A DNA stretch of 64,000 nt from positions 3,325-67,324 of the forward strand of contig JASMKH010000011.1 in the NCBI GenBank assembly GCA_030749435.1, written 5' to 3'. A model generated the notes under the pieces. The model made no database searches and was not told the DNA's origin. It saw only the letters and a list, made by a program, of their open reading frames with translations. Shown here in pieces: positions 24,801 through 41,642 of this stretch. The position numbers and the translations under genes were made by a program. This DNA comes from Phycisphaerales bacterium. GTDB lineage: Bacteria > Planctomycetota > Phycisphaerae > Phycisphaerales > SM1A02. Positions within the stretch are counted from its first letter, which is position 1; each line of letters opens with the position of its first letter.

Positions 24801-24833
24801 GCCGCCGCGATCAGCGATAGCGCGGCGGCTTTG
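24801..24833. terminator. Possible bidirectional hairpin terminator between accC and the convergent cvpA-like gene
   Basis: gccgccgcg (24801-09) pairs with cgcggcggc (24821-29) over an 11-nt loop, followed by TTTG. It overlaps the last codons of the minus-strand gene. Confidence 0.4.
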
Positions 24834-26556
24834 CGGTGATGTTCTCGAAGAACCCGATGCGTTCATCGTCGAGCATGAGCCGGTCAAGTGAAACGCCCAC
24901 AGGCACGACGAAGATCAACGCGAACTGATTTGAGTCGCTCTTCGGGCGGTGCCGGATGTCGCTCCATCGGGAGATCGGAACGTTGTAGGAGATCGTCGTC
25001 TTCGCGTCGTTCTTGAGTTCAAACCCGTAGGGCGAATACTCGCCCCCCTGGGTGTCAATGAGCCGGATTTCGCCGTCGCCGCCCATGCGCCGGGCGAGTT
25101 TGGCAATGTCGGCCGATGTCCCCGGCCCCACCTTGATCTTGATGATGGCTTTGCTGTCATCCAGCTCGCGCGCCTGCCCGCCGTCTACCCTCGAGACCAG
25201 GCGCTCAATGCCATATCCGGACACCTTGAGTTTGCCCTTGCCGCGGGACTTGTTGCCGACCTGAGTGGCCTCGGCCCGGAGAATGCGGTTGCCCTGTTCA
25301 GAGAATTGCGGGGATCCGCCTCGGAAGTCACTGATGCTCGGCCTGGCGCCTCGCGGCAGGCCCGCCTTCATGTCCACCAGGCTGGAGATGTCGCCACCCC
25401 ACAGTTCGCCCGCTTCAGAGCCAGCCCCGACGGCACCGGTGTGCAGGCAGAATTCCTCCCATGATTCGTCATCTCTGGCATCGGGAAGATCGAACCGTGT
25501 GCCGCGGATCTGAATGAACCTCGGTTCAAAGGAATCGTCCGGCGCGTCGAACAGCAGTTGAAACTCAGCGTCGTTGCGACTTGTGCCGTAGAAGTATGGA
25601 TTCTCGGTGGAGAACTCGAAGAAGGCCTTGGCCGGTACGTTGGTCCCGTCCTCAGGATGCCTGGAGTAGGTGAGTTGGGACCAGAACTTCGGGTACCGAA
25701 TCACCGTGCCCTCGTCAGAGTCGCCGACGAGTCGAACCTGCGGACCTCCAATCGCGATGCTCCGCCGGACATCCATACCCTTCTTTTCGAAGGCCAGCGG
25801 CACCATCCACCAGTGGACGTCGTCAACCCCGATCGAACGAAGCGGTGGTGATACGGTGACGGTGCCGGGCGCCTGAAAGAGCTGCGTGGCCACGTACGGG
25901 TCCTCGGACTGCAGCCGGGTTCGCAGCAGCGTCGCCTGCCGGTCCAGGTGAGGATTCCAGTCGGCCATCGGTTTGCCACCGATGTCCGGGTGCAGCGATC
26001 CGGTGCTGAAGCGTTGGAACATCGAGGCGGTGAGCGTGTCCACCGGAATCCACAACTGCTTGGGATACTTTGCGCTGTCCTTGTCGGTGTCGCCCCGGGC
26101 ATCCTCCGCGGCGCTGGCTGCCTCGTGCACGTTGCCGCCGGAGTCGACGCCCCACCCTGTATGCCCGAGCGCGCCCGCAGGGATGTCGATGAACCCGGTG
26201 CCGATGACGAGCATTCCGGCGGTCACGACGCCGGAGGCGGCGCCGAAGACGGCTCCGCCAGTGAGGTCGGCTGCCCGCGGAATGCGGGTGTTGCCTCCCG
26301 CAACTTTGTCGGTAATGCTCCGGAAGAGCAGCAGGGCCCCCAAGAAGAGCAGCAGCAGGACCGAGCCGGGGATCAGACCGTTCCACTTGGACGGGCCGAG
26401 CAGCATGTCGAATCCAAGCGGCTCCCACAAGGCAAAGGCCACCGCGGCAGCGCAGACCACGCAGATGAAGTGCAGCAGCGCGCTGAAGAAGCCCTGATTG
26501 GACCACCAGTAGGCGATGAGGGCAATGACCAGAATGACGGCAACATTGATGACCAT
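24811..26556 (-). CDS. CvpA-family membrane protein with a large uncharacterised C-terminal domain
   Basis: MVINVAVILVIALIAYWW..FFSALLHFICVV..ALWEPLG is the CvpA-type 4-TM N-domain. About 400 aa of unassigned sequence follows. Start at Met 26556. Confidence 0.75.
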   Translation of the reverse strand: MVINVAVILVIALIAYWWSNQGFFSALLHFICVVCAAAVAFALWEPLGFDMLLGPSKWNGLIPGSVLLLLFLGALLLFRSITDKVAGGNTRIPRAADLTGGAVFGAASGVVTAGMLVIGTGFIDIPAGALGHTGWGVDSGGNVHEAASAAEDARGDTDKDSAKYPKQLWIPVDTLTASMFQRFSTGSLHPDIGGKPMADWNPHLDRQATLLRTRLQSEDPYVATQLFQAPGTVTVSPPLRSIGVDDVHWWMVPLAFEKKGMDVRRSIAIGGPQVRLVGDSDEGTVIRYPKFWSQLTYSRHPEDGTNVPAKAFFEFSTENPYFYGTSRNDAEFQLLFDAPDDSFEPRFIQIRGTRFDLPDARDDESWEEFCLHTGAVGAGSEAGELWGGDISSLVDMKAGLPRGARPSISDFRGGSPQFSEQGNRILRAEATQVGNKSRGKGKLKVSGYGIERLVSRVDGGQARELDDSKAIIKIKVGPGTSADIAKLARRMGGDGEIRLIDTQGGEYSPYGFELKNDAKTTISYNVPISRWSDIRHRPKSDSNQFALIFVVPVGVSLDRLMLDDERIGFFENITAKPPRYR

Positions 26557-26575
26557 GGCAGTGCCTCCTCCGGTC

Positions 26576-28234
26576 TCAGGCCTTGGTGGCCGGTGTCGCT
26601 GCTGATCGGCTGCGACCACCGCCGCCGAGTACCCGTGAGACTTCTTCCACAGAGGTGATTCCCGCCGCCGCTCGCTGCAATCCGACCTCCTGCAGCAGCA
26701 GCATCTTCTTGCGGCGGGCGTGCACCATCGCGGCCTTGAGATCGCCCGCAGCCAGGATCTCTCGGCACTCCTCGTCTACCGGGAAGACTTCGAAGAGCCC
26801 GGTCACACCGGTGTACCCGGTGCCGTTGCAGGTGGGGCACTCCTCGACCCGATTGCGAACCTGAACCTGCCCGCTTGCCTTGTACAGGGTTGTGCCGTCC
26901 GGGAAACCGAGTTTGCCGGGCTCGGCGGGGGTGTAGGGCTGCTTGCAGTCAGGGCACAGCACACGGACGAGCCGCTGACAAACAACAGCGCGGAGGGGCT
27001 TGGTGGCCAGGTCGACGTCTCCGGACAACTGGCACCAGGTTCGAATAGCTGCGGCCGCGCTGTCGGCGTTGAAGACCAGATACTGAAGCACGCCGTCTCG
27101 ACCTGCCCGGCACGCAGTCTGCACAGTCTCGGCGTCGATTGCCTCGGTCACGACCACATCGGGGTCGCGACGCAGGATCGACTGCAGGCTGGTGGCGAAG
27201 TCGAGATTGGGATTGGACGGATCCCACAACACATGGTCGACGCCCTCGAGCTGCTTGAGCGTCTTGCGCTCGAGAATCTTGAGGTTGCTCGTGTACGCGT
27301 CATGCTGCCCAAGCAGCGAGATGGCGGTCGTGGAGAGCCCCTGCCCCTTCGGCGCGGTCAGGAGGACGATGCCGTGGCGATTCTGAGGACTCAGGAACGC
27401 GTCCAGTCGCTCCCGCTGCCTCGGCAGCAGGCCGAGCGCGTCGATGGGCATGACGATTCTCGCTTCCTCGTCGATGTCCACACGAACAAACTGCCCCTTC
27501 GAGGATCCCGTCACGGTCACCGTGAGGACGTGTCGATCAGTCGGGGTGGAGACCGTGAATCGCCCGTACTGCGCGCGGCGGGTATCCGCAAGGTCCATGC
27601 CCGCGATCTGCTTGATCATGTTGACGATGGAAGCGCCTTCGTCAGCCGGGAGCGGCTCCTGAGCAGTTCGCACCGAGTGCACTGTGACTCCAGACGCGAG
27701 GCCCTTGGCACCAAGCGCCAGGTCGATACGGCTGGCACCCTGCAGAAACGCCAGCGACAGGAGCCCATCCAGTTGCAGGTAGGCCTCCTGCAGCGGGTCC
27801 TCCTGATCTGGAACCGGGACCTCGCCACCGGCACCGTGAAACACGAGCGTCGCCCCCTTTGATCGTTGGCGCCGCTTCTTCTTCTCGGCCTGTCCTTCGC
27901 CCTTGGCGAACAGCTTGAACTTGCGCGACTCGGGGACCTCGGCGTTTCGAATCCGCCAGTAAACCAGGATGGGCACGAGCAGCACGGCGGTGCCGGCGAC
28001 CCACGAGATGTAGAAGATGCCGGCGAAGAGCATCACGCCGAACCCGACGATGCCTGCCCCGAGGTTGATGAAGTTCCACTTGACGGGATTGAGCCGAAGC
28101 ACTCGCGCATCGGAGTCGATGTGGTTGCCGACCAGCCACGCCCAGCCGAGGAAAGTCGCCCAGATCAGGACGGGCTTCCACGGGCTCAGGAGAAAGACGG
28201 ACGTCTGTGCGAGTTCAGTCATGGGGGATGTCAT
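26576..28234 (-). CDS. GspE/PilB-family ATPase homologue, membrane-anchored, with degenerate Walker A and His box (probable pseudo-ATPase)
   Basis: ATG 28234 lies 4 nt after the pilT stop. The N-terminus has TM helices (VFLLSPWKPVLIWATFLGWAWL; LGAGIVGFGVMLFAGIFYISWVAGTAVLLVPILVY). The core is GspE-like (RRDPDVVV, CPDC...CPTCNGTGYTG), but Walker A reads TAPKGQGLST with no Lys. Confidence 0.8.
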   Translation of the reverse strand: MTSPMTELAQTSVFLLSPWKPVLIWATFLGWAWLVGNHIDSDARVLRLNPVKWNFINLGAGIVGFGVMLFAGIFYISWVAGTAVLLVPILVYWRIRNAEVPESRKFKLFAKGEGQAEKKKRRQRSKGATLVFHGAGGEVPVPDQEDPLQEAYLQLDGLLSLAFLQGASRIDLALGAKGLASGVTVHSVRTAQEPLPADEGASIVNMIKQIAGMDLADTRRAQYGRFTVSTPTDRHVLTVTVTGSSKGQFVRVDIDEEARIVMPIDALGLLPRQRERLDAFLSPQNRHGIVLLTAPKGQGLSTTAISLLGQHDAYTSNLKILERKTLKQLEGVDHVLWDPSNPNLDFATSLQSILRRDPDVVVTEAIDAETVQTACRAGRDGVLQYLVFNADSAAAAIRTWCQLSGDVDLATKPLRAVVCQRLVRVLCPDCKQPYTPAEPGKLGFPDGTTLYKASGQVQVRNRVEECPTCNGTGYTGVTGLFEVFPVDEECREILAAGDLKAAMVHARRKKMLLLQEVGLQRAAAGITSVEEVSRVLGGGGRSRSAATPATKA

Positions 28235-28238
28235 GGGT

Positions 28239-29396
28239 TCAGGAGATGCCCTTGAGTCGCATCTTGAGTTCCTCAGGTTTGGGCGTGGCATCCATGGCGA
28301 CGCGGTGGTGGATCCACTCCTCCTCGACCAGCCTGACGAGCGTCGAAGTGAAGTCGACCATGCCCTCTTCGTGGCTCTGCTTGATGATGTCGAGCAATTC
28401 GCCTTCCCGTCCCTCAAGAATGTACTTCTGGACCGAGGGCGTGCCCAGCAGGATCTCCAGGGCCGGAATCCGCGGCGTCGTGTCCGGATGCAGCGTCTTG
28501 AGCAACTTCTGGTAGATGATGGCTCGCATGTTGAATGCCAGCAACTTCCTGATCTGTGGTACCTCGCCCTCTTCAAAGAGGTCGTAAATCCGACCGAAGG
28601 TCTGCCAGGCGGAGGAAGCGTGAATGGTCCCGAAGACGACGTGACCGGTCTCCGCGGCACGGATCGCCGCCTCAAAGGTCTCCTTGTCACGCATTTCGCC
28701 GACGAGGACGACGTCCGGATCTTCACGCACCAGGGCCCGGAGGGCCTCGTTGAAACTCAGGCAGTCGATGCCGACTTCCCGCTGATTGATGGTCGCCTTG
28801 GCCTCGGTGAAGATGTACTCGATCGGATCTTCGATCGTCACGATGTGGCACCGGCGTCGTTCATTGACGTGCTGCAGCATGGCGGCAATCGACGTGCTCT
28901 TGCCGCTGCCGGTGACGCCTGCGAAGAGAATGAGCCCGTTGGCGGCCAGCGCCACCTCGCCCAGGAGTTCAGGTACGTGAAGGTCCTCGAAACGTTTGAT
29001 GTCCGAAGTGATGAGACGGCATGCGTACGAGACCTTGCCCCGGCTCATGAAGATGTTCACCCGGAAGCGATGTTCCTCGTCATAGTCGTAGGCGATGTCC
29101 ATCTGCCCGTGGGACGCGAAGATCTCATACTGGTACTCGTCGAGCACATCCTTGGCGACCTGATGGGTCTCGTCGTGGGTGACGTGCGCAGTGTCCAGTG
29201 GGCGAAGTTCGCCGCGAACGCGGATCCGCGGAGGTCCGTCGGCTTTGATGTGCAGATCGGATGCGGCGTAAGTGATACACGCCTTGAGAAACTTGCGGAA
29301 GAGCGTCTCGCCTGCGCCGGGTGTCGTGCCTTTGGCATGGTGGACGAGTCGGGCGTCCGGGAGCGGATTGGACACGATGATCACTCCTTCGAGCAT
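28239..29396 (-). CDS. pilT: Type IV pilus retraction ATPase PilT/PilU family
   Basis: ASDLHIKADGPPRIRV, Walker A GVTGSGKST, Walker B/Asp box DPDVVLVGEMRD, His box TGHVVFGTIHA. Confidence 0.88.
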   Translation of the reverse strand: MLEGVIIVSNPLPDARLVHHAKGTTPGAGETLFRKFLKACITYAASDLHIKADGPPRIRVRGELRPLDTAHVTHDETHQVAKDVLDEYQYEIFASHGQMDIAYDYDEEHRFRVNIFMSRGKVSYACRLITSDIKRFEDLHVPELLGEVALAANGLILFAGVTGSGKSTSIAAMLQHVNERRRCHIVTIEDPIEYIFTEAKATINQREVGIDCLSFNEALRALVREDPDVVLVGEMRDKETFEAAIRAAETGHVVFGTIHASSAWQTFGRIYDLFEEGEVPQIRKLLAFNMRAIIYQKLLKTLHPDTTPRIPALEILLGTPSVQKYILEGREGELLDIIKQSHEEGMVDFTSTLVRLVEEEWIHHRVAMDATPKPEELKMRLKGIS

Positions 29397-31049: not shown

Positions 31050-32180
31050 ATGCCAACAGCCAACGCAACTCAGAACGCCGAGCCCCCGATGCCCACGCGG
31101 CGACGGGATCGGATTCTCATGTTGGGACGCCGCAAGGCCGGCAAGACGGTCTTCCTGGCGCGGCTCTATGAACAGGCATGGCGGGGCGGTGATGGACTGC
31201 ACATGCGGGCCGCCGAAGGCGCGATGCACGAACTGTGCATGGAAATCGTGGAGCAACTGCACCACGGCCAGTGGCCCGCCGCCACCGCGGGTTCGCTCTG
31301 CAGCGAGGTCGAGGTCACGTGGCTCGGCATGCAGGCCACCATGCTCATGCTCGACTACCCGGGCGAAGTGTTTCGCCAGGCATTCGTCGAAGGTGGGGGC
31401 GGCGCGCAGGCCGACGAGTTGATTGACCATCTCGACCATGCCGCTGCTGTGATCCTGCTCATTGACCCGGGCAATGTGCACGCGGGCTCCGCCCGCGAAG
31501 TGGTGGACGATGACTATGGAATGGTGCAGGCGGTGGACTACCTCCGCCGCAGCCCGGGCGGCACTCAAGTCCCCCTCGCCGTCGCGCTCACCAAGTGCGA
31601 CGAGCACGTGGGACTGGTTCGATCTGCCGGCGGGGCGCGGGGTTTCATCGAGTCGAAGATTCCGAACCTGACGCAGTACGGCGGCCGGATGCGCATTTTT
31701 GCGACGGCCGCGGTGCGGACCCGCGGCGATGCGCTCGGTCGTCCGGTCCCCAATACCCAGCACGAGCCAGCGGGCCTCTCCGACGCGTTGAAGTATTGCA
31801 TGAAGCACGTCGGCGCCGCCATGGCCCAAGCAGCGAGAAACAATCGGGAGGCGGCCCGCCGCGACGAGCTCAACAGGGCTGCCGCCCGTGACCGCCGCTT
31901 CGCCCAGCAGTCGTTTCGCAGGTGGGTCGGTTTTTGGGTGGCGATGGGGATCTTCGGTGTCGTCGTCATCGTCGTGGCATTGTTCGTTGCGTTCCGGGAG
32001 CCGCAGCCCACCGAGTCGATTGCACCTCCGGTCATGGCGCCGCCGGCTGAGGTGGTGCCAGTTCCAGAGCCTGAGCCAGTTCCAGAGCCAGAGCCAGTGC
32101 CCGAGCCCGAAGCCACCGAGGATCCGGGACCGCGTATCGGCAAACTCAAGCCTTCCACTGCTGGCGGAAGCGAACCGTGA
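31050..32180 (+). CDS. Membrane-anchored Ras-like small GTPase (locus gene A)
   Basis: G1 GRRKAGKT (31125-31148), G3 DYPGE, G4 TKCD. C-terminal TM WVGFWVAMGIFGVVVIVVALFVAF, then a (PVPEPE)3 tail. GGGAG sits 5 nt upstream of the ATG. Confidence 0.85.
   Translation: MPTANATQNAEPPMPTRRRDRILMLGRRKAGKTVFLARLYEQAWRGGDGLHMRAAEGAMHELCMEIVEQLHHGQWPAATAGSLCSEVEVTWLGMQATMLMLDYPGEVFRQAFVEGGGGAQADELIDHLDHAAAVILLIDPGNVHAGSAREVVDDDYGMVQAVDYLRRSPGGTQVPLAVALTKCDEHVGLVRSAGGARGFIESKIPNLTQYGGRMRIFATAAVRTRGDALGRPVPNTQHEPAGLSDALKYCMKHVGAAMAQAARNNREAARRDELNRAAARDRRFAQQSFRRWVGFWVAMGIFGVVVIVVALFVAFREPQPTESIAPPVMAPPAEVVPVPEPEPVPEPEPVPEPEATEDPGPRIGKLKPSTAGGSEP
32058..32111 (+). repeat. 3 x 18-nt in-frame tandem repeat encoding (PVPEPE)3 in the GTPase tail
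   Basis: ccagttccagagcctgag / ccagttccagagccagag / ccagtgcccgagcccgaa. Confidence 0.8.
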
Positions 32181-33871
32181 TCTTCGAGACGCACCTCATG
32201 GGTTCCGATGGGGGCTATGGGGAGCGGGCGTGGTCGGCCGGACTGAGTGAGCGAGAACGCCAGGCCCTTCGGGACGTCGATCTTGGACATCCCAACGTGC
32301 GCACACTTGAACTCGGATCGGTCATGCTGTTCGGTCGGCCCCTCCCGGCCGGGCGAATCGCAGTGACGGCATGCGTTGCCGGGCCGAACGATGAAGCCGG
32401 ACGGCGGACTGTCGAGTTCCGGTCCATCGTCATGGCACGAGCGGACTGGACCTGCCGCGCTCGGCACGACCCCCCGCAACTGCTCGACGCTGCGCTCTGG
32501 GAAGATCCGTCCTTCGAGCAGGGCCGGACGCTCAATGTCTCGCCGGGGACGGTTGATGAGGCCGATCCCTGCAGCGACGCCCGCCTGCTGGCAGCCGCGG
32601 TGCGGCTGGGCGTGGGGCCGATTCATCTGGTCCACGGCCCGCAGACCCACGCGGCCATGCTGGGCATGCTGAGCGCACTGTCCGATCATGAGGCCGGCAA
32701 TCTGCGATGGGGCCTTCGGCTCAATCGCCCGTCCGCCGATCTTGACGTGGCAACGCTCGACCCGGCAGCACCCACCGGCGGTGTCAGCCGCACAACGCTC
32801 AAGGCGCTCCGACACATCGTGGACGAAGCACGGGAGGAGGCTGCCCTCCATGCCTCCGGTGCGGACGCTGCAGCCAGTGGCAGCGACCTTCCCCGCGGCG
32901 GCCGCGGGTTGCGCGTGGCGAGCGGGGTGCTGATCGCACTGGCAGTGGTGCTGACCGGTTGGTTGATTTCGGCGCGTTGGCAGGATGCCCCGGTTCCGCC
33001 GCCAACCGACCCGCCCGCCCCGCACCTTCCGACCACCGTGCCGAGCCCGCCAGTCACCTCGAGGACCTCGCCGAAACCTCACCCCCCGCGGCCGCCCGCA
33101 GATCCGCAGCCACCACCGGACCCGGTTCCAGCAGCGCCGCCCAACTCGTCCACACCCTCCGAGCAGGAGGCCCCCCCAACGCCGGATCCCGCTGTTCCGA
33201 CGCCTGCGCCGCCCGAGATCCCGAGCGATCCGCGAGTCGTGGCCGATGCAATCGGGGCCTTCAACCGCGATGCATTCGATTGGTGCGAGCACGCCGCCAT
33301 GGGCACCCTGACCCGGTCGGTGCGTCGGCATTGCATCGATGCCGCCATCACCGAGTTCTACGACTCCACATCCGGGTGGACTGCCCAACTCGGCGATTCG
33401 TACCAGATGCCGGACGAACTCTCACTCTGCACCCTTCTCGAACGAGCACAACGCGCCGATGCACTCTTTGAGTGGATGGGCGGGGGGACTACGCCCCCAT
33501 GGGCCGACCTTGATGAGACGATGGAATGGCTCCGCGACATCCCCGAACGCCCGCAGTCGGTGTGGCTCGGGCAGGTGAACGATCGCATCACGGCCCTCCA
33601 GGACTGCCAGCGCAAACTGGCGACCTTCACCAAGTTCCTCGCCGCGGTGCAGACCCCGTGGCGTCACGCGCCGCAGGCACCGTGCTCGCTCGAGACGGCC
33701 GCCAGAGAACTCGCCTCCTACCAGGCCCCATGTGCGCCGGAAGCCGTCGCGCTGATCGCTGATCCGCCGGGCACCAGATGGCCCCTGCGAGACCTGCCAC
33801 TCAACTCGGTGGCGAAATCCTGGACATTTCTGCAACAACAACGCGATGCTGTGACGAACCCCAGAGAGTGA
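32177..33871 (+). CDS. Bitopic protein: cytoplasmic N-domain (paralogous to gene H), TM, Pro-rich spacer, Cys-containing C-domain (locus gene B)
   Basis: GTG 32177 overlaps the gene A TGA (GTGA). TM is VASGVLIALAVVLTGWLISA. About 90 aa of P-rich linker follows. The C-terminal ~200 aa contains 6 Cys. Confidence 0.8.
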   Translation: MIFETHLMGSDGGYGERAWSAGLSERERQALRDVDLGHPNVRTLELGSVMLFGRPLPAGRIAVTACVAGPNDEAGRRTVEFRSIVMARADWTCRARHDPPQLLDAALWEDPSFEQGRTLNVSPGTVDEADPCSDARLLAAAVRLGVGPIHLVHGPQTHAAMLGMLSALSDHEAGNLRWGLRLNRPSADLDVATLDPAAPTGGVSRTTLKALRHIVDEAREEAALHASGADAAASGSDLPRGGRGLRVASGVLIALAVVLTGWLISARWQDAPVPPPTDPPAPHLPTTVPSPPVTSRTSPKPHPPRPPADPQPPPDPVPAAPPNSSTPSEQEAPPTPDPAVPTPAPPEIPSDPRVVADAIGAFNRDAFDWCEHAAMGTLTRSVRRHCIDAAITEFYDSTSGWTAQLGDSYQMPDELSLCTLLERAQRADALFEWMGGGTTPPWADLDETMEWLRDIPERPQSVWLGQVNDRITALQDCQRKLATFTKFLAAVQTPWRHAPQAPCSLETAARELASYQAPCAPEAVALIADPPGTRWPLRDLPLNSVAKSWTFLQQQRDAVTNPRE

Positions 33872-33873
33872 CC

Positions 33874-36207
33874 ATGTCGATCGGTCTGCGACATCTCGAC
33901 CGCGCAGTGCTCAGTTGCGGCCTGCTCACGCTCGCCCTCGGGTGCCAGTCCCCGCAGCAGGCCACCGAAGCCGCTGCCGACGAGACGCCGGTTCGAGACC
34001 CGAGGCCCGACGGGCGCGACGAAACGCGATGGGCGCAGCGGCAACGACCGGCCCCGAGCGCCACCTTGCCGAACAGCCAACTGTGGGCGGATGCATCATC
34101 CCCTACGCCGACCGGACGACCCTCGCCACCGCAGCGAACTGACGCCTCGGCAGCGGCACCCCCCCCGGATTCCCCCCCGGATTCCCCCCCGGATTCCCCC
34201 CCGGATTCCCCCCCGGAGTCCCCCTCGGAATCTCCCTCGGAATCTCCCTCGGAATCTCCCCCGGAATCCCCCCCGCAATCAACACCCCCCCCGGAGTCCC
34301 CCCAGCAGTCAACACCCCCCCGGGACGCCGCCCCGCCAGTCGATCCCCAGCAGCAGTCCCAATCACCACCGACCCGCACGCAGCCATCTGCGGCGACATC
34401 CGAAGACCTCCCGTCACCGGAGCGCCAGCCCCCCGCAACGTGTGATGGCGGTAGTGAGTCGGGAAGCGGTGGCGTTCCATCGGCCGGGGCGAATGACGCG
34501 CAGCCATCCACGTCTGCGCCGCAAGGCGCGACCTCGCAGGCAGGGGGTGACCCCAGCGATGAACCTGCCGCGGATCCCGGACGATCGCGGCAACTCGAAT
34601 CGCTCGAGGTGGCGGAGGGGGAGACCATCTCGCAGCGCCGCCCGGGTGGCCTCGACTCAAACGCCAGCCCCACCCCGCCAGAGGGGTCCGAGGCCGGTCC
34701 GGCACGTGAGGAGGGCGCCCAAGGCGATTTGGATGGCCACACGATGGAGCCGCAGGGCCTGCTTGAGGCGGCAAGGGCCGAGGGCCCCGACCAGTCACGC
34801 CCTGAGTGGGCCGTGTCGCCCGAAGCGACAACTCCGCCCGAGCCCGGGGCAGGGGGTGGCCCCTCGGGTGATCAGACCGGCAGCAGCGACGGGGACGCGG
34901 GCGGTTCGGACGGGTCGGGGGGGGCCGCGATGGAGGACGCTTCCGGTCGATCCGCCAGGGCCAGCCAGTCGGATGCACTCGAGCACACCGCCGGGACAAG
35001 TACCGCCGAGGGCGAGATCGAGGGCACACAGCCGCCGGAGCCGGCAGACGCCCAGGTGGAGGCTTCTGCCGCAGAGACCGCGCAGGCCGCCGGTGAGCGG
35101 CCCATCGACGTGGCCGCAGCCGCTGCTGCAGCGGCCGCCGCAGTGGAGAACGCGAGGAACTTCCACGCCGCCTTCAGCGCCGACCCGGGAGTCACCGACA
35201 CCGGTGACGATCTCGTTTCCAGAGGTGAGCACTTTGAGCCGTGGCACCGCGAGGTCCGCGGCGTCTGGGAACTCGTCTCGGTCACCGATGCCGATGAGGA
35301 CTTCATTCCCGGCGGCGCCACGCGTCGCTTGATCGGGATCGATCCCGTGCAGCGCGAACTCAACGCCTACATGGCCACCGGTGGGCGGTCCCGGGAGTGG
35401 CAGTCACTTGCATTCGAGGCGGCGTTTCGCAAAGCGCAGGTGGAGATCAGACCACTCGCCGATCGCCCCTCCGCGCTGGGTGAGCACAGCGGACTCCATC
35501 CCGCTGCAGTCGAGGTGCCCTGCGAGACCGCTTGGGCGAGGGAGGGAAGGTTTCTGCATCTCGCAGGTGGGGTCTACGCTCCGGGAGATCCCGAAGAAGT
35601 CGTCCAGATCATGGAGGCGCCGGATGTCACCCCGACTCCGACCACGCCCCTGGCCGGGCCTCTGGACCATGGGGCCGGTGGCGCATCGGCCGCATCTCCG
35701 ACGGTCGACTTCTTCGGTGTGCAGTCGCATGGTCGTTTCGTCGCCTACATCCTCGATGTGTCGCGATCCATGCGGGGTCGCATGGCTCGCCTGCAGGGGG
35801 AACTCGAAGCATCGCTCACATCGCTTCCGAGAAACGCGAGATTCGTGGTGCTTCCGTTCAACAGCACACTGCTCAAACTGCAGCCGCAATGGACCTTGGC
35901 CAGTCAGGGAAATACACGACGGGTTGGACGGGCGCTTGCCGACGTCGCGGCTGGAGGGGGGACCGATCCTGCCGAGGCCTTCGAGTGGGCGTTTCGAACC
36001 CTCGACCCCCGACCGGATGAGATCTACTTCATGACCGACGGCGCCGTCGAAGAGAGTCGCCAGTTGCTCAAGCGGCTTCGCACCTTGAATGCAGGAAGTG
36101 GGAAGACCCGAATCCACGCCATCGGACTGGGGCTCAATGCTGAAATCGGTTTCCTGAAGGCGGTGGCGGGGGACCATGGCGGTCGGTTCGTGCACGTCAC
36201 GCAGTGA
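33874..36207 (+). CDS. Lipoprotein with >400-aa acidic disordered linker and C-terminal von Willebrand factor A domain (locus gene C)
   Basis: ATG 33874 lies 2 nt after the gene B stop. Lipobox is LTLALGC. PPDS/PSES repeats are present. The vWA domain has an intact MIDAS: DVSRS (D at 35755), GGTD and MTDG. Confidence 0.85.
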   Translation: MSIGLRHLDRAVLSCGLLTLALGCQSPQQATEAAADETPVRDPRPDGRDETRWAQRQRPAPSATLPNSQLWADASSPTPTGRPSPPQRTDASAAAPPPDSPPDSPPDSPPDSPPESPSESPSESPSESPPESPPQSTPPPESPQQSTPPRDAAPPVDPQQQSQSPPTRTQPSAATSEDLPSPERQPPATCDGGSESGSGGVPSAGANDAQPSTSAPQGATSQAGGDPSDEPAADPGRSRQLESLEVAEGETISQRRPGGLDSNASPTPPEGSEAGPAREEGAQGDLDGHTMEPQGLLEAARAEGPDQSRPEWAVSPEATTPPEPGAGGGPSGDQTGSSDGDAGGSDGSGGAAMEDASGRSARASQSDALEHTAGTSTAEGEIEGTQPPEPADAQVEASAAETAQAAGERPIDVAAAAAAAAAAVENARNFHAAFSADPGVTDTGDDLVSRGEHFEPWHREVRGVWELVSVTDADEDFIPGGATRRLIGIDPVQRELNAYMATGGRSREWQSLAFEAAFRKAQVEIRPLADRPSALGEHSGLHPAAVEVPCETAWAREGRFLHLAGGVYAPGDPEEVVQIMEAPDVTPTPTTPLAGPLDHGAGGASAASPTVDFFGVQSHGRFVAYILDVSRSMRGRMARLQGELEASLTSLPRNARFVVLPFNSTLLKLQPQWTLASQGNTRRVGRALADVAAGGGTDPAEAFEWAFRTLDPRPDEIYFMTDGAVEESRQLLKRLRTLNAGSGKTRIHAIGLGLNAEIGFLKAVAGDHGGRFVHVTQ
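34159..34325 (+). repeat. 12-nt periodic tandem repeats with iterated C7-C8 tracts inside the vWA lipoprotein gene
   Basis: (ccccccggattc)x4, ccccccggagtc, (ccctcggaatct)x3, and related units. Two ~24-nt ...gcaRtcaacaccccccc units follow. Encodes PPDSx4, PPES, PSESx3... Confidence 0.9.
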
Positions 36208-36215
36208 TCGGTCCG

Positions 36216-37136
36216 CTACTGCGCAATGGAGGTGCCATGACGTATCGCGTCGTTGTACCTGAGCGTGGGTGAGGCGAGGATCGGTTCGACGTTGTGCTCG
36301 AACCCGCGCTCAACGACGAGTCGCCTCGCGGCGTGAAACTTCTCGAACGAGTCCGGCGTCACCCGGAACGAAATGAACTGCGATCGCGGTTCCAACTGAT
36401 CGAGCAGCGTTCCGATTGCCCGCAAGTCGTTGTCGGTCTCCATCGGCAGGCCGCCGTCCGGCCGAAGCTGGAGGCTGCGATCGATCCGCCGACCTCCCGT
36501 CCGAAACTCGCACGTTCCGTGGTCCTCGAAGGTGGAGGCGTCCGGATCGACCGCCTGCACATTCCAGGTGGACCAGAACCGGCACCGATCACCGATGGGA
36601 TTCGGCGTCAGTTTCCAGTCGGACCAGTCATTGACCAGATACAGGCGGTCATTTGTGAGATACACCTGAACCGGAATGCGATGCTCGATGGCGTGCCTGC
36701 GCGGCGTCCGCAGCGGAATCGTCTGCTTGTCCTTCGCGTCCTGCACCTGCCGCGTGAGGCTGCGGATGCGGGCTTGGCGGGCTTCCAGTTCACCCTCGGA
36801 ATCTGAGGCGCGGAGGTTGTCGCGGAAGCGGTCGATCAATCCGCCGAGTTCCAGCTTGATGCTCAGCATGCGTTCCATTTCACCACGCGTTCGCTCGCGG
36901 GCGGTGCGAAGCGTCATGTCGGCATCCTGCTCGATCGACTCGATGGCCAACCGCAGTCTGGCCGCCTCGAGCGATCGTTCGGGCGTCCGGGCTTCCATCG
37001 CGTCGATCGTTCGTTCGCCTCGCGCCGCGGCCAACACCGCCGCCAGCACGGCGATGAAGATCACCATGCCGAACATATTGCAGATCGTGTCGAGCAGAAG
37101 GTCAAGGCTCGACTCGTGCTCACTGGAGCGTCTCAT
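36216..37136 (-). CDS. ExbD/TolR-topology protein: N-terminal TM with conserved Asp, coiled coil, C-terminal domain (locus gene D)
   Basis: ATG 37136 overlaps the gene E TGA (ATGA). MRRSSEHESSLDLLLDTICNMFGMVIFIAVLAAVLAA has Asp16 at 37089-91. A heptad-like helical segment follows, then a Trp-rich C-domain. Confidence 0.8.
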   Translation of the reverse strand: MRRSSEHESSLDLLLDTICNMFGMVIFIAVLAAVLAAARGERTIDAMEARTPERSLEAARLRLAIESIEQDADMTLRTARERTRGEMERMLSIKLELGGLIDRFRDNLRASDSEGELEARQARIRSLTRQVQDAKDKQTIPLRTPRRHAIEHRIPVQVYLTNDRLYLVNDWSDWKLTPNPIGDRCRFWSTWNVQAVDPDASTFEDHGTCEFRTGGRRIDRSLQLRPDGGLPMETDNDLRAIGTLLDQLEPRSQFISFRVTPDSFEKFHAARRLVVERGFEHNVEPILASPTLRYNDAIRHGTSIAQ

Positions 37137-37909
37137 GGCTCCGACCTTCGGCCGGGGAACTGGCCCGTCGTGCTTGAGTCTTCGGAGATGAGGTCGATGC
37201 CGACGGCGACATCCGAGAACCGCGGGTCCCGGTCGATCTTCCGCATGATCGCCTGCCATGCGGCGAAGCCCGACGGTTTGATGCTGAGAAGCAGGTGCGT
37301 GGGCCTGGACGTCGAGGCGGTGAGCCACGCCTCGAGCGCGGCTGTCGCGATCTGCTCGGGTGTTCCGGTTCGCATCCGCGGGGCGATCCGCGGGTCGGTC
37401 CTCGAGAGCACGACGCGACCACCCATCAACTCCGTGACGAGCGCGTCGCTGTCGTCGTCTGCGACGAGGTAGGAGATCTGCCGCCGACGTTTGATTGCTT
37501 CAAGTTCACCTTGAAGCTGGCCCTCTCGGGTCGCCAGCCTGTCCAACTCGGCGAGGTCTCCGCGTCGCAGCGAGTTCGCGGCCTGCGTCTGCAGGGACTC
37601 CAGTTCCCATCGCCGCGACTCGACCAGCCCAGCTTCCAACTCCAGTGCGGCCTGGAGTTGCTCGAGTTCCGCCAGAATCACATCCCGGCCGGGCCGCGCC
37701 TGGAGTTCTTCGAGCCGGGCGCGGAGTGACTCGACCGCTTCCTCCGAGTCCTCGGAGTACACGGCGGCGACCGCCTGTGAAGTGCGTTTGCCAATGCTCA
37801 GCAGCAGCACGAGCGTGATGATCAGCACGACCCCGATCGTTCCGATCATGACGTCCTGAAACGAGAAGAAACTGATCGGCGCCGCGCGACCCGCCCGCCG
37901 CCGGCTCAT
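37133..37909 (-). CDS. ExbD/TolR-topology protein with long coiled coil (locus gene E)
   Basis: ATG 37909 overlaps the gene F TGA (ATGA). ISFFSFQDVMIGTIGVVLIITLVLLL resembles the ExbD 'IDVMLVLLIIF' segment, with Asp19 at 37853-55. An E/L/Q/R-rich coiled coil follows. Confidence 0.8.
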   Translation of the reverse strand: MSRRRAGRAAPISFFSFQDVMIGTIGVVLIITLVLLLSIGKRTSQAVAAVYSEDSEEAVESLRARLEELQARPGRDVILAELEQLQAALELEAGLVESRRWELESLQTQAANSLRRGDLAELDRLATREGQLQGELEAIKRRRQISYLVADDDSDALVTELMGGRVVLSRTDPRIAPRMRTGTPEQIATAALEAWLTASTSRPTHLLLSIKPSGFAAWQAIMRKIDRDPRFSDVAVGIDLISEDSSTTGQFPGRRSEP

Positions 37910-38796
37910 GCCGGTTCGTCCGGGGCCACCCTGACATGCGCCGTGATGTTGCGAGCGGCGTACTGCCGGCAGTCGTCGAGGAGCCGTTCGTCGCTCCGCC
38001 GTACGAATGTCAGGCTCAAGTGCAGCAGCAGGGCGGCAATGAGCCCCTCGCCGGTCGTGACAAAGGCCGTGTCGAGCCCGGCGATGACGTCAGTGAGCCG
38101 GTCGGTCAACCCGCCCATCGTGGCGTCACTTGACTCGAGCACGCCTCCGAACCCGGAGATGGCCTCGGTCAGACCGATGATGGTTCCGATGAATCCGAGG
38201 ACCGGGATGGCCCAGATGAGCCCACGGACGACCGTGTAGCCGCTGTCCATGGCATCCTCATCGGCTTCGGCCGCCGACTTGAGCATTTCATCCAGATCGG
38301 CGATTCGCCCAATGTTGCGGATCGACTTGAGCGCAATCACGACGCGGTCGAGCAGCAGAAAGCGATGCGGTTCGTCGACACCATGTTCGATCGAGTCAAT
38401 CACCCGGTCCACGGTCCGTACCGAGAGCGTGAAGCCAGCGTCAGAGGGCACAAACCGAAGCCGAAGTGCGGCCCGCTGCGCCGCAACCTTGCCAGCCTTG
38501 AGCAGCAGGATGGCAGCTGCCCAGCACGAGAGCAGCATGATGGGAATGGGGATGCCTGAGAATCCGGTGAGGTACTCCCAGACGACCGCGCCCCATCCCG
38601 TCCCCCGCACTGCCCAGGCGGTGGCATAGACCACGCCCATGAATGCAAGTCCGACAACCATCGAGGCACTTGAAGATGGCGTTGTGAAGCGCCCGGAGGG
38701 CAGGCCGAGTCGCCTCTCGGGATCGAGCGAGGCGTACGAAAGAACTCGAATGGGCTGCTGGTCCCAGGCCGCCGGCGGTGGTGCTGATCCCGTCAT
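37906..38796 (-). CDS. MotA/TolQ/ExbB-family proton-channel protein (locus gene F)
   Basis: ATG 38796 overlaps the gene G TGA (ATGA). Three TM helices. C-terminal signature WAIPVLGFIGTIIGL...GLDTAFVTTGEGLIAALLL. Confidence 0.85.
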   Translation of the reverse strand: MTGSAPPPAAWDQQPIRVLSYASLDPERRLGLPSGRFTTPSSSASMVVGLAFMGVVYATAWAVRGTGWGAVVWEYLTGFSGIPIPIMLLSCWAAAILLLKAGKVAAQRAALRLRFVPSDAGFTLSVRTVDRVIDSIEHGVDEPHRFLLLDRVVIALKSIRNIGRIADLDEMLKSAAEADEDAMDSGYTVVRGLIWAIPVLGFIGTIIGLTEAISGFGGVLESSDATMGGLTDRLTDVIAGLDTAFVTTGEGLIAALLLHLSLTFVRRSDERLLDDCRQYAARNITAHVRVAPDEPA

Positions 38797-41642
38797 GGCG
38801 CTACGAAGATAATCGCTGGAGCATGGGGCATGTTGCCAGGCCATGGCATTGACCCTGAGGCGTCGGAGGTATCGATGCGATGGAATCGCCAGCCCAGCGG
38901 TGCTCGCAGCAACACTTCGGCGGGCTGGTCGGCTCCGTCAGGCATGTCCATGGCTGCAACGTGCGGATTCTCGGAGTCCGGTCGAAGCAGGCCGCCGATG
39001 ATGCGAGGCTTCACGGCCTCGGAGAGTTCAGCCACTTCCCTTCGCCACGCCTGCCGGATCTCGTCGGATGATGGGGCGGCGTGCGGCGCATGCAGCGCCT
39101 GGCGGCGCACTTCATGCTGCGTTGGCGCGGCAGCCTTCGGCGCCAGTTTGACCCAATCGGCGGTGGTGGCACTCGGGGCTGGCGCCGAGAGTGTGTCCAA
39201 CCAATGCGCCCCGGCTTCAGCAATGCCCTCAGGCAAGGGCACGGCCGGGCTGCGCAGTGTGCTCCATACCGTGCGAAGAATGGCGAGCACGAGGAGCGGG
39301 TCCTGCTCATTGCACTGTTCAACAGCCTGCAGCAACGCTGCGGCCGCTTCGGGACTGCGGCTCCCTCTCCACGCTTCCAGCCCGCGGTGCAGGGCGGCGA
39401 CCGCGGGGGGCGGACTCGGTTCGACGCCGGCGAACATCACCCGCTGCGCCTCGTGTGTGAGGGGCTCAAGGTGGGATGCCGGAACTCGAAGATCCTGGCG
39501 GGACTCCAGACGCCGCCAGGAATGACCGGCCCGCTTCAGATAGTGGTACCCCGTTGGAGTCTCGGCGCGGTACAGATCGAGGAGCCCCGAGTCCTCAAGC
39601 GCCGCTTCGAGCGGGTCAAGATGGCGGGCGTCCTGCATGGCCGATGCGATGCGAACAAGCCGCTCGGCGGCGGATCGATACGGCGAGTGCATGCCGTGGG
39701 CGTCCAGATGTGACTGCAGGCTTGTCTTGGCGCCACCCACGAGCGGCAACTGGGGCGGCCCATCGGTGGACCACAATTGGGCCTCGGCGATTCCAGAGAG
39801 GCGCGATCGCCAGTCCTCGACAGCCCTGGCCGCCGAGGCGGCCTCGGCCGCGAGACCCCACTTCGCCCGGTCGCCCGCGTTGATGACGTCCGGATACTCG
39901 GAGATCAGCGTGTCCCACGCGCGAGCCCACATCGACTCGGTCGTCGGAACGTGGCTGAGTACCTTCAGGGCTCGTTGACCCTCCAGGAGGCGGTCGACCC
40001 TGGTCGTGGCGAGTGACCGCAACGTCGTGACGCGATGCTCCAGTGATTCGAGCCGCTGCTGCGTTGTGATCTCATCGGCGGCGGGCCGCAGGCGGATCGC
40101 CGCCAGCAGGCGAGCTGCCTCGCGGGCCTCGGCGAGACGGGCGGTCCAACCAGCCAGATCCCCAGGAAGGGGGTTGGGCTCCTTGAACAGCAACTCGATG
40201 GATGCCAACTCCTCCAGACGGGCGGTTCGCTCCTGTTGCAGCAGGGCCGTGCGGTGTGCCGTGGCCTGCTCGAGGGCCGCGTCGCTGGCCGCGTGCAGCG
40301 GTGGTGGAAGATCCGGCTGCACCCGGCGGAGCAGCGCGATGGCCGACTGGACGGATGCGAGCGAGTCGGCCTCACGCTCCAGCATCGACGTGGCTCGAAG
40401 GAGGGCGTCCTCCGCAGCAGTTCGACGGACGGCAAGGGTCTCGGATGCCCGCCCGATGGCGGCCCGGTGCGAAGCGATCTCAGCGACCTCCGTGAGGTGG
40501 GCTCGCTCGGCCTCAGCCCAGCAGTCCAGCGCCTCCGGGAGCCGGTCGGTCTGCAGCGCCGCAGCCATGCAATCCGAGAGGTACGTAATGGTTCGTGCTC
40601 GCTCAAGGCTCTGATGTCTGACGAATATGATCACCGCCAGTGCCGAGGCCACCGCGACGATGGCCAACGCGCCGACTGTGAATCGGCGGGCGCGGGCTCG
40701 CCGCTCCTCCGCGATTCGGTGGGCCACGCGGGTCTCGACGGTCCGCGGGATGGCAGCCCCGGCCTCGATCGCGGCGGCGTAGCGGCGTTCGATTCCATGC
40801 ACGGGCTCGAGTTCATCCAGCGACCGAACGAGGTCGATCACCAGATTGGCCTTGGCATCGACGCGGTCCCTGCGATCCTGATCGGCCTCGAGCCAACTTA
40901 GAACTCCTCGAATGGCGATGTCGGAGCCGCCACCGGATGCTTCGGCCTGCGTGCGCCACTGCTGCACGAGCTCGGCAGCGGCCCCTGCATCCATGGCGGC
41001 CCACGCCAGATGCAACGCACGTTCGATGGCATCGAGGCGGCTGCCGGCTGCTTGGCGGGCAAGGTCCGCCATCGCATCGTCCAACTGATGCAGGAGGTGC
41101 TGGCCGCTGGCGGTGAGGAACTCCATCCGCTGTGCCTGCCTGGACATTTCGGCAATGGCACGCTCGTCTCCAGACCCAAGGCAACGCTCCACTTCAGTTG
41201 ACCACAGTGCAACGGCCGCCTGTTCCAGCGGCTCGTGCACTCGTTTCCAAAGCGGGTTGTTGGGCTCGAGCAGCCGCAGGGCCCGTGCGGCAGCGAGACG
41301 CGCTGGGAGCGGCCGATCTTCCAGATTGGCCAGCGTCCACTGATCGACCTCGTCGCGGTGCAGCTGCCCGGTTGCGGGGATTCTGGCCAGCGCTTCGAGA
41401 GAAGGGGTGGCAGGGAGTCTCAAGCCGGACGGAAGTGGCTGCCCCGACTCGTGCAGGGTCAGGCACAGCCCAATGATGTTGCCCGCGTCGGCATTGAGCG
41501 CCGCTGCTGCGATGGCGTCCCCGCGAACCGCCCATGTGGCGCACCATGCGAGCGATCGGGAGACAGCCTCGGCTGCGGCCCGCAGCGTCACTTCGTCATC
41601 GGGCTGGCGCATCGCCGCTCGGAGTGTCTCGGCCTGATTCAT
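38793..41642 (-). CDS. 949-aa all-helical bitopic membrane protein (locus gene G)
   Basis: ATG 41642 overlaps the gene H TGA (ATGA). A single TM (FTVGALAIVAVASALAVIIFV, 40618-40680) splits a ~320-aa N-part from a ~600-aa C-part. Both parts are A/L/R/E-rich and helical. No catalytic motif seen. Confidence 0.8.
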   Translation of the reverse strand: MNQAETLRAAMRQPDDEVTLRAAAEAVSRSLAWCATWAVRGDAIAAAALNADAGNIIGLCLTLHESGQPLPSGLRLPATPSLEALARIPATGQLHRDEVDQWTLANLEDRPLPARLAAARALRLLEPNNPLWKRVHEPLEQAAVALWSTEVERCLGSGDERAIAEMSRQAQRMEFLTASGQHLLHQLDDAMADLARQAAGSRLDAIERALHLAWAAMDAGAAAELVQQWRTQAEASGGGSDIAIRGVLSWLEADQDRRDRVDAKANLVIDLVRSLDELEPVHGIERRYAAAIEAGAAIPRTVETRVAHRIAEERRARARRFTVGALAIVAVASALAVIIFVRHQSLERARTITYLSDCMAAALQTDRLPEALDCWAEAERAHLTEVAEIASHRAAIGRASETLAVRRTAAEDALLRATSMLEREADSLASVQSAIALLRRVQPDLPPPLHAASDAALEQATAHRTALLQQERTARLEELASIELLFKEPNPLPGDLAGWTARLAEAREAARLLAAIRLRPAADEITTQQRLESLEHRVTTLRSLATTRVDRLLEGQRALKVLSHVPTTESMWARAWDTLISEYPDVINAGDRAKWGLAAEAASAARAVEDWRSRLSGIAEAQLWSTDGPPQLPLVGGAKTSLQSHLDAHGMHSPYRSAAERLVRIASAMQDARHLDPLEAALEDSGLLDLYRAETPTGYHYLKRAGHSWRRLESRQDLRVPASHLEPLTHEAQRVMFAGVEPSPPPAVAALHRGLEAWRGSRSPEAAAALLQAVEQCNEQDPLLVLAILRTVWSTLRSPAVPLPEGIAEAGAHWLDTLSAPAPSATTADWVKLAPKAAAPTQHEVRRQALHAPHAAPSSDEIRQAWRREVAELSEAVKPRIIGGLLRPDSENPHVAAMDMPDGADQPAEVLLRAPLGWRFHRIDTSDASGSMPWPGNMPHAPAIIFVAP

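Follow-up and report, generated by a model that had tools for sequence, protein, structure and literature searches.

A predicted tail-anchored DO-GTPase of Phycisphaerae, its likely membrane partner and the MotA/ExbB-type module that travels with them

The subject of this article is one gene and the company it keeps. The gene, which we call A, lies in a 64,000-nucleotide stretch of DNA from a Phycisphaerales bacterium (GenBank assembly GCA_030749435.1, contig JASMKH010000011.1, positions 3,325 to 67,324 of the forward strand); we refer to the whole stretch as the window and give all coordinates in it. The product of A is probably the tail-anchored GTP switch of a membrane system of the DO-GTPase/GAP1-N2 type, with the product of the next gene, B, as its partner. 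We hold this molecular description with good confidence. For any specific biological role, our confidence is much lower. A first-pass annotation of the window had seen in A a small Ras-like GTPase, itself an integral membrane protein, with a periplasmic Pro-Glu tail that would couple it directly to the periplasmic parts of B and of a third gene, C.

The GTPase and its family

The features of gene A on which the argument draws are these.
31050–32180, forward strand: gene A, an open reading frame (ORF) of 376 residues, predicted tail-anchored DO-GTPase.
31125–31148, forward strand: G1 motif (P-loop) GRRKAGKT, residues 26–33, containing K32; coordinates recomputed.
31284–31286, forward strand: T79 of a WPAAT motif, the candidate switch-I (G2) threonine just before the β2–β3 hairpin.
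31353–31367, forward strand: G3 motif (Walker B) DYPGE, residues 102–106, containing E106, the glutamate that is a hallmark of the family.
31590–31601, forward strand: G4 motif TKCD, residues 181–184, of the guanine-specificity type [NT]KxD.
31776–31922, forward strand: stalk helix, residues 243–291, cytoplasmic and continuous with the next helix in the AlphaFold model.
31923–31994, forward strand: C-terminal transmembrane (TM) anchor WVGFWVAMGIFGVVVIVVALFVAF, residues 292–315, Kyte-Doolittle 19-residue maximum 3.0.
31995–32177, forward strand: extracytoplasmic Pro/acidic tail of low complexity, residues 316–376, present in the close clade only.
32058–32111, forward strand: three copies of PVPEPE, residues 337–354.

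The protein closes on a short basic end containing Lys and Arg (...GPRIGKLKPSTAGGSEP). When the positions were recomputed, the reading frame, G1, DYPGE, TKCD, the C-terminal helix, (PVPEPE)3 and the basic end all fell where the first-pass annotation had placed them.

We found 97 homologues of A at E ≤ 1e-37, nearly all of them in metagenome-assembled genomes (MAGs) of Phycisphaerae/Planctomycetota. Conservation was judged on an alignment of 59 sequences at 32–72% identity, in which G26, R27, G31, K32, W75, P76, T79, D102, Y103, G105, E106, K182 and D184 are invariant and T33 and T181 nearly so. The glutamate that had been noticed after DxxG, where a catalytic glutamine was expected, is thus not a peculiarity of one protein; it is E106, and every sequence in the alignment has it. 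T79 we infer to be the G2 (switch-I) threonine, and the region of G4 gives a weak profile match to the NKCD region of HRas. The contig index holds no record of the exact product of A. It is a real gene, and not a chance reading frame in GC-rich DNA, because it has 97 homologues, invariant motifs and a core that is modeled with a predicted local distance difference test score (pLDDT) above 90.

Searched against Pfam, A finds DO-GTPase2 (PF19993, 33.1 bits) and DO-GTPase1 (PF19975, 31.8 bits), each above a cut-off of 27. At E ≤ 0.1 these two models are its sole hits, so that Ras, Arf, Roc and all other GTPase models go unmatched, and precomputed annotations assign the majority of the 97 homologues to both. 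Kaur, Burroughs, Iyer and Aravind (eLife 2020, PMC7159879) defined the DO-GTPase family by computation. Its members conserve a Walker-B glutamate, come as two paralogues in 38% of systems, carry N-terminal zinc ribbons in 60% and frequently have TM segments. After the DO-GTPase gene, or fused to it, sits the gene for "GTPase-associated protein 1" (GAP1). The type of system that concerns us, GAP1-N2, occurs in planctomycetes among others, and its GTPases may bear a C-terminal TM helix. As described, it comprises a GAP1 protein with N, M and C domains, a rapidly evolving FNIII-repeat protein and mobile, variable effectors; GAP1 is frequently fused to C-terminal TM helices, and the paper describes a membrane-proximal role and a switch model for such systems (PMC7159879). 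The first-pass annotation had thought a GTPase wired into the membrane unusual. Since TM-anchored DO-GTPases and the Walker-B glutamate are both reported in that paper, the membrane anchoring of A and its Glu-for-Gln exchange are traits of the family that were already known.

The AlphaFold model of A, built on the family alignment, has a mean pLDDT of 87.3 and a predicted TM-score of 0.75. Its GTPase core spans residues 21 to 240 or so at pLDDT above 90, and strands 84–91 and 94–101 form a β-hairpin leading into D102, as in TRAFAC GTPases. An uninterrupted helix follows at 243–315, about 50 residues of stalk and then the TM segment, with pLDDT above 95 to about residue 310. Beyond it the tail is disordered (pLDDT 45–64), with no globular end domain. 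When the model was compared with the PDB using Foldseek, the 50 matches listed were GTPases without exception: Arl1, Arf1, Arl3, EF-Tu, eEF1A/eEFSec, G-alpha, EngB, NRAS, YcjX and a chain of EGOC (Rag/Gtr) are among the neighbors, at E-values of 3e-6 to 6e-5 and target-normalized TM-scores of 0.6–0.68. A sequence-profile search of the PDB with the A family gave nothing under E = 0.37, so A has no solved relative by sequence.

Sequence and model agree in making A a TRAFAC-class P-loop GTPase of the DO-GTPase family with G1, G3 and G4 intact, and the P-loop GTPase proposed in the first-pass annotation comes through the hidden Markov model (HMM) searches and the structure comparison unharmed. On motifs and structural neighbors we reject a SIMIBI or other non-GTPase P-loop identity, and since no placement in such a family materialized, GTP binding is the activity to expect of A. 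The label "Ras-like" is harder to keep. There is no Ras, Arf or Roc match in Pfam, the glutamine position holds a glutamate, and the likeness to Ras is one of fold.

The membrane anchor and the tail

Of the 97 homologues, 93 have a strongly hydrophobic helix in their C-terminal half, and in 92 it sits at the C-terminal end. In these 93 proteins the 15-residue stretch leading up to the helix contains 3.0 Lys and Arg on average, against 0.6 beyond it, a positive-inside bias that argues for an N-in/C-out topology. The counts support a family of tail-anchored proteins with a single C-terminal TM helix, as the first-pass annotation had supposed when it made A an integral membrane protein with its C terminus outside the cytoplasm.

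GTPases built on this plan are familiar from elsewhere. Toc33/34, Miro, the GIMAPs and SR-beta each hold a cytosol-facing GTPase domain on a single terminal TM helix, and Toc34 and the GIMAPs dimerize at the membrane in a nucleotide-dependent manner. To our knowledge they are unrelated to A, none is bacterial and none has a GAP1-type partner. FeoB, of another TRAFAC family, is a bacterial G-domain covalently fused to a polytopic transporter; it shares with A the joining of a G-domain to a membrane part, whereas A has one TM helix and no transport domain.

The tail is a more local affair. About 74 of the 93 TM-bearing homologues have 0–9 residues past the helix, mostly 0–2. Pro/acidic tails of 22–59 residues are found in just 14 close relatives (54–77% identity), where they are mutually unalignable, and three more distant homologues have Pro-rich tails of 16–26 residues that lack acidic residues. 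The PVPEPE stretch coincides with a recent 18-nucleotide tandem repeat in gene A (32057–32107, 2.8 copies, 90% matches).

These observations bear on the model of the first-pass annotation, in which the periplasmic tail of a Ras-like A contacts B and C as a rigid spacer of the TonB type. The model has its attractions. The positive-inside bias puts the tail outside the cytoplasm, where B and C both have Pro-rich linkers and domains; all 14 of the closest relatives that retain a post-helix region have the Pro/acidic tail; NCBIfam TonB models match weakly over the TM helix and the Pro-rich stretch (E = 0.015); and a MotA/ExbB channel is encoded nearby. Yet the TonB matches score 13–15 bits against cut-offs of 315–448 and are compositional, the tail is disordered and ends in no globular domain, its repeat is young, and the pairing of A with B, often together with linkage to the MotA gene, persists in homologues that end at the helix. 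Because most homologues stop there and the tails that do exist cannot be aligned, the tail cannot be the conserved coupling route of A. We regard the model as unlikely, and likewise tail-mediated periplasmic coupling as a core mechanism. Our conclusion from the comparison of sequences is that the tail is probably a disordered, acidic spacer in the periplasm, particular to this lineage and secondary in importance, which may matter locally.

Coupling of A to B is better explained by contacts in the cytoplasm and the membrane. We favor these because the two genes overlap by 4 nucleotides and because B is so constant a neighbor: in our census of 84 non-redundant related loci (numbered with the prefix L; phmmer on six-frame ORFs, with a B-type N-domain as query), B is the very next gene after A in 78 of the 79 in which more than 700 nucleotides follow A. 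The overlap itself is kept in L004 and L007.

A word is due on TonB. The TonB–ExbB–ExbD system resembles ours in having a single TM helix followed by an acidic, Pro-rich periplasmic stretch, and in the ExbB-family channel and Asp-bearing TM proteins encoded close by. In TonB, however, the TM helix is N-terminal and the protein ends in the globular TonB_C domain, whereas A has a cytoplasmic GTPase domain and no C-terminal domain. We considered A as a TonB protein and rejected it, the NCBIfam matches being confined to the TM helix and Pro-rich stretch and the tail having no globular domain. By architecture, B is the more TonB-like of the two.

The likely partner B, the predicted lipoprotein C and the convergent operon

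The two genes that follow A are these.
32177–33871, forward strand: gene B, 564 residues, with a GTG start that overlaps the TGA of A (GTGA) by 4 nucleotides; its N-domain lies at 32177–32800.
33874–36207, forward strand: gene C, a predicted lipoprotein (MSIGLRHLDRAVLSCGLLTLALGC) in which a long linker of Pro, Ser and acidic residues leads to a vWA domain at the C terminus that has a metal ion-dependent adhesion site (MIDAS; DVSRS).

B is laid out as a cytoplasmic N-domain (residues 1 to about 200), a TM helix (247–269), a Pro-rich linker and an all-α periplasmic domain (352–560), and its product is 100% identical to a protein from a Phycisphaerales MAG. In the model (pLDDT 79 overall) the N-domain is a two-lobed α/β structure at pLDDT above 90, and the linker is disordered. 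The first 200 residues or so are the conserved part of the protein. The periplasmic domain evolves fast, and a query with the C-terminal part of B matched L006 and L009 only. A search with full-length B was swamped by its Pro-rich region and gave one match; the N-domain alone, run against a representative library, gave 196 relatives. Across 65 of these relatives, H6, S10, G13, Y14, R54, G59, D72, R76, T78, W108 and G179 are invariant.

We call the N-domain of B a divergent GAP1-N2 domain because of its own weak match to PF20013, the matches of its orthologues and those of its wider relatives. Weak GAP1-N2 matches beginning at the same profile position appear in two of the four B orthologues scanned, and the B protein of L084 gives one likewise; among the 65 N-domain relatives, 23 match PF20013 at E ≤ 1e-3, the best at 1.9e-9. 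The identity of B is carried by these transitive matches rather than by a direct hhalign comparison. Foldseek offers a further lead. The best matches to the model of B, all of them weak, are TagF of the type VI secretion system (E = 0.005), a second TagF (E = 0.03) and the longin domain of Lst4 (E = 0.04, probability 0.99), with a Lokiarchaeal Roadblock-Longin protein and GATOR1 lower down. GAP1-N2 may therefore belong with the longin/roadblock/DENN-like folds of GTPase regulators, which we offer as a lead and not as proof.

The start of gene C is very likely the ATG at 33874, as read from a signal peptide with a lipobox (…LTLALGC). The vWA domain matches Pfam VWA_3 at 9.3e-12, and the MIDAS motif DxSxS is present in 25 of 25 C orthologue ORFs. 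A lipobox of PROSITE type turns up in 19 of the 25 when residues 1–120 of the untrimmed stop-to-stop ORF are scanned, and a few of these matches may be spurious since such ORFs take in upstream sequence. Within the linker, a low-complexity region of about 400 residues, a 12-nucleotide tandem repeat of ten copies (34160–34280) gives (D/E)SP(P/S) units. The third gene after A and B is not the same everywhere: most loci have a vWA protein, a trypsin-like protease is found in L001, L060 and L071, and L003 and L007 have none.

Facing these three genes is a second operon of six genes on the reverse strand (36216–43160). Its genes are translationally coupled through overlaps of 4–8 nucleotides, it converges on A, B and C and it ends 9 nucleotides past C. 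In order of transcription it reads as follows.
42456–43160, reverse strand: zinc-ribbon (ZnR) protein of 234 residues, a decayed paralogue of a second DO-GTPase.
41639–42463, reverse strand: a second GAP1-N2 protein, 274 residues, with a C-terminal TM helix (PF20013, 35.6 bits, cut-off 24, profile positions 3–136 of 139).
38793–41642, reverse strand: helical/coiled-coil protein of about 950 residues with a mid-protein TM helix and orthologues at the same position in many loci; no Pfam family matches it.
37906–38796, reverse strand: proton-channel protein of the MotA/ExbB/TolQ family (PF01618, 1.3e-10), with weak ZorA matches.
37133–37909, reverse strand: single-pass protein of 258 residues with an Asp in the TM helix (SFFSFQDVM) and then a coiled coil, ExbD/TolR-like by motif only.
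36216–37136, reverse strand: another single-pass protein, its N-terminal TM helix likewise carrying an Asp (SLDLLLDTICNMFG), ExbD/TolR-like by motif only; its start was inferred from conservation and the 4-nucleotide overlap with the upstream gene.

An Asp in the TM helix is the signature of ExbD, TolR and MotB, the plug subunits of 5:2 stator motors. In both single-pass proteins the Asp of the N-terminal TM helix is invariant across 14 loci. Pfam finds no ExbD/TolR match in either, and searching the PDB with a profile from the alignment of the 258-residue protein, the one of the two so searched, brought up coiled-coil noise only. The 274-residue protein, scoring above the PF20013 threshold, is the bona fide GAP1-N2 domain of the locus.

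The ZnR protein is what remains of a second GTPase. It aligns to the N terminus of ZnR-DO-GTPases of 412–415 residues that are intact in two related loci, L084 (15181–16416) and L071 (14691–15935), and match PF19993 at 30–32 bits. In the window the P-loop GAPxxGKS has become GDDAASTR, Walker B is lost and the C-terminal half is gone. It is a decayed remnant, and in this genome A is the sole GTPase of the system still intact. The paralogy of A and the second GTPase rests on their shared Pfam family and an alignment of motifs: by hhalign the A family shows weak similarity to the second GTPase of L084 (E = 0.025) and none to the 234-residue ZnR protein. In L071 and L084, whose A proteins are 36–39% identical to ours, the module genes lie on the same strand as A and B, in the order A, B, trypsin-like protease (L071 only), ZnR-DO-GTPase, GAP1-N2 (with GAP1-M in L071), a coiled-coil protein of about 1000 residues and MotA. 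Because the second pair is intact in those loci and a decayed ZnR protein sits in ours, we take it that the ancestral system had two DO-GTPase/GAP1-N2 pairs.

How firmly is this module tied to A and B? Among the 39 loci with at least 9 kb of sequence downstream of A, 27 have a MotA homologue within 10 kb of it and 31 have at least one gene of the module. The module is convergent with A and B in 23 loci and co-directional in six. That the linkage outlasts rearrangement suggests that the genes are connected in function. A tRNA-Arg(CCG) (43214–43287, reverse strand) sits immediately upstream of the ZnR gene, and past it a divergent gene (43307–45037, forward strand) encodes an FHA-GAF-PP2C phosphatase of the SpoIIE type; PP2C and kinase partners are one theme of actinobacterial GAP1-N2 systems (PMC7159879).

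The surroundings have the look of a settled chromosome. In relatives down to about 45% identity the same neighborhood is kept (biotin carboxylase, a CvpA-like protein, two T2SSE ATPases, IMPDH, A-B-C and the convergent operon), which argues for long vertical inheritance and against a mobile island. GC content is uniform across the window (0.62–0.70), a plasmid search gave no match and PADLOC found no defense system in A, B or C. The window also has, at 24811–29396 on the reverse strand, a 602-residue protein with a weak CvpA/Colicin_V match followed by the two T2SSE ATPases, one GspE/PilB-like and one PilT-like. No further pilus or secretion genes adjoin this trio, which is syntenic with IMPDH and A in relatives.

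Some oddities among the relatives deserve recording. Recorded for L060 (5816–7477, reverse strand) and L089 is a large serine recombinase 2.3 kb upstream of an A-B-trypsin trio. IMG/VR has as viral a contig that agrees with L060 both in length (19,077 bp) and in its match and is probably the same contig; an element may have integrated alongside the trio, or the contig may have been called viral in error. A reverse transcriptase (RVT_1) lies about 9 kb downstream of the A-B-trypsin trio in L001 (about 20794–21041) and L002 (15558–16065), preceded in L002 by a helix-turn-helix gene, and may belong to a diversity-generating retroelement or a retron. Several loci of Phycisphaerae type (L010, L013, L018, L064, L066 and others) come from records labeled Isosphaeraceae, Klebsiella sp. 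or Chitinophaga pinensis; as the synteny is conserved, a wrong taxonomic label or an error in binning is the probable cause. Finally, two MAGs carry two copies of A each: L014 and L015 (JASMMN01) and L040 and L051 (JBMSXH01). In one MAG the copies are 62% and 68% identical to our A, in the other 47% and 40%, and they may be true paralogues or strain mixtures.

Set beside the published DO-GTPase/GAP1-N2 systems (PMC7159879; PF19975, PF19993, PF20013), ours has much in common: a TRAFAC GTPase with the Walker-B glutamate, a GAP1-type gene downstream, TM helices on both GTPase and GAP1, occurrence in planctomycetes, vWA and trypsin accessory genes and, in related loci, a second paralogous GTPase with a zinc ribbon. 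It differs in that A has a C-terminal TM helix only, where others have four at the N terminus, in the decay of the second GTPase, in its housekeeping site, which appears fixed and not mobile, and in its conserved MotA/ExbB and two ExbD-like genes; the paper of Kaur et al. makes no mention of MotA, ExbB or TolQ. Several further points weigh against our placing A and B in such a system. The Pfam scores of A are just 5–6 bits over threshold, and each is a partial match to its model. A has none of the N-terminal zinc ribbons typical of the family. The GAP1-N2 match of B falls below threshold (16.8 against 24 bits, E = 0.007), and an hhalign comparison of the B family with the bona fide GAP1-N2 protein of the window is colinear but weak (probability 12.5%, E = 0.0023). 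Pfam detects neither GAP1-M nor GAP1-C in B or in the 274-residue protein, and GAP1-M is found just in the relative L071. No FNIII protein was found: there is no fn3 match in C (E ≤ 0.1), in the ~950-residue protein (E ≤ 0.01) or in the other locus proteins scanned, and one of 65 B relatives has one. The longin/DENN-like assignment of B stands on Foldseek E-values of 0.005–0.04. And our literature search found no biochemistry or experimental paper on any DO-GTPase, nor did the PDB search find a structure.

What the switch may do

For the mechanism we would propose the following. The GTPase domain of A (residues 20–240 or so) would sit in the cytoplasm on a stalk helix of about 50 residues that runs into the single C-terminal TM helix, and A and B would be co-expressed through their overlapping stop and start codons. 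The GAP1-N2 domain of B, possibly longin/DENN-like, is the predicted direct partner or regulator of A at the inner face of the membrane. B would cross the membrane once, so placing its Pro-rich linker and all-helical domain in the periplasm alongside the vWA/MIDAS lipoprotein C. Binding and hydrolysis of GTP, in which E106 probably activates the water, would switch the A–B complex between conformations or states of assembly and in this way might couple events sensed in the envelope to an output in the cytoplasm or the membrane. The pair may work with the second GAP1-N2 protein, the decayed ZnR paralogue and the MotA/ExbB channel with its two ExbD-like subunits.

One can go further and read the whole locus of about 12 kb (31050–43160) as a single machine of nine genes in Phycisphaerae that has not been described before. 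Its parts would be two DO-GTPase/GAP1-N2 pairs, with one GTPase active and tail-anchored and the other reduced by decay to a zinc-ribbon adaptor, a motor of the form MotA/ExbB5–(ExbD-like)2, the ~950-residue protein and lipoprotein C, and the GTP state of the switch would gate a force or signal that is driven by the proton-motive force (PMF) and passes across the envelope. The role of such a machine could be adhesion or surface movement, in the manner of Agl-Glt, or envelope surveillance, in the manner of Zorya. We put this forward tentatively, as a possibility.

What the A–B pair is for can be read in two ways, which we weigh about equally and each of which, taken singly, we consider doubtful. 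The first is immunity or conflict. Here A and B would form a threshold switch, dependent on GTP, which detects invaders at the envelope and then frees an effector that differs between loci (the vWA protein in ours, the trypsin-like protease elsewhere), and the MotA/ExbB protein might be a Zorya-like envelope sensor. Kaur et al. assigned DO-GTPase/GAP1 to conflict systems and described planctomycete versions coupled to trypsin (PMC7159879). The variable third gene fits, as do the fast evolution of the periplasmic domain of B and the weak ZorA matches of the MotA protein, and one may add the relative with a serine recombinase close by, whose contig appears as viral in IMG/VR, and the reverse transcriptase downstream in L001 and L002. 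Against this reading stand the absence of a PADLOC match in A, B or C, the lack of any recognizable toxin or nuclease effector in the system as it occurs in the window and the fixed housekeeping neighborhood with its uniform GC and no plasmid match. The second reading makes the locus a GTPase-regulated, PMF-driven machine spanning the envelope, for adhesion, surface movement or envelope remodeling, analogous to Agl-Glt of Myxococcus xanthus. There the GTPase switch MglA/MglB is served by GltJ, a membrane adaptor with a zinc ribbon, a TM helix, a disordered periplasmic stretch and a C-terminal domain (PMC11135422), by AglRQS, a TolQ/ExbB-type pentamer (AglR5) with a heterodimeric TolR-like pair AglQ/S (PMC11761067), and by CglB, a vWA outer-membrane lipoprotein adhesin (PMC9946355). 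A, the ZnR protein, B, the MotA/ExbB protein with its two TM-Asp partners and lipoprotein C can all be matched to parts of this machinery, and the stable chromosomal position and the linkage that survives rearrangement would suit it. The likeness is one of architecture, though, and an analogy: neither sequences nor profiles showed homology to any Glt or Agl protein, the ExbD/TolR likeness comes from a motif with no HMM or PDB match behind it, no outer-membrane β-barrel partners were identified and in eight of the 39 loci the A–B pair lacks a MotA module over a distance of 10 kb. MglA, moreover, comes from another family and is a soluble protein whose catalytic site is of the Gln type. We know of no reports of gliding in these uncultured MAG lineages, which also counts against such a machine. 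(NCBIfam matches to GltJ, at 16–17 bits against a cut-off of 450, we set aside as artefacts of low complexity.)

A might also be no working GTPase at all. It would then be a P-loop protein that is catalytically dead or does not use GTP (a pseudo-GTPase or an ATPase) and whose one task is to act as a scaffold in the membrane, and someone so inclined could point to the glutamate in place of the canonical glutamine and to the decay of the second paralogue in this very locus, which tells us that activity does get lost in the system. But the nucleotide-binding motifs are invariant in 59 sequences, K182 and D184 of the guanine-specificity motif included, the glutamate is the norm of the family and all the structural neighbors listed are GTPases. 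We think this very improbable.

What is new here, then, is a subfamily of DO-GTPases that are tail-anchored only, confined to Planctomycetota (Phycisphaerae) and held at a fixed chromosomal position, with a reduced GAP1 partner, a decayed second GTPase and a conserved tie to a vWA lipoprotein and to a stator-type module of the MotA/ExbB kind. DO-GTPase/GAP1 is a large family known from computational prediction only. The Phycisphaerae subfamily is a stripped-down version that is open to experiment, with one intact GTPase on a single TM helix and one bitopic partner, and the linkage to MotA/ExbB and vWA genes gives a concrete hypothesis for what DO-GTPases regulate. The A locus also calls into question the idea that all members of the family are mobile immune systems. 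What it adds to the cell biology of planctomycetes is a conserved module that would span the envelope, and if the nine genes do form one machine, then DO-GTPase/GAP1 modules would be regulators of stator-type motors and not stand-alone immune switches.

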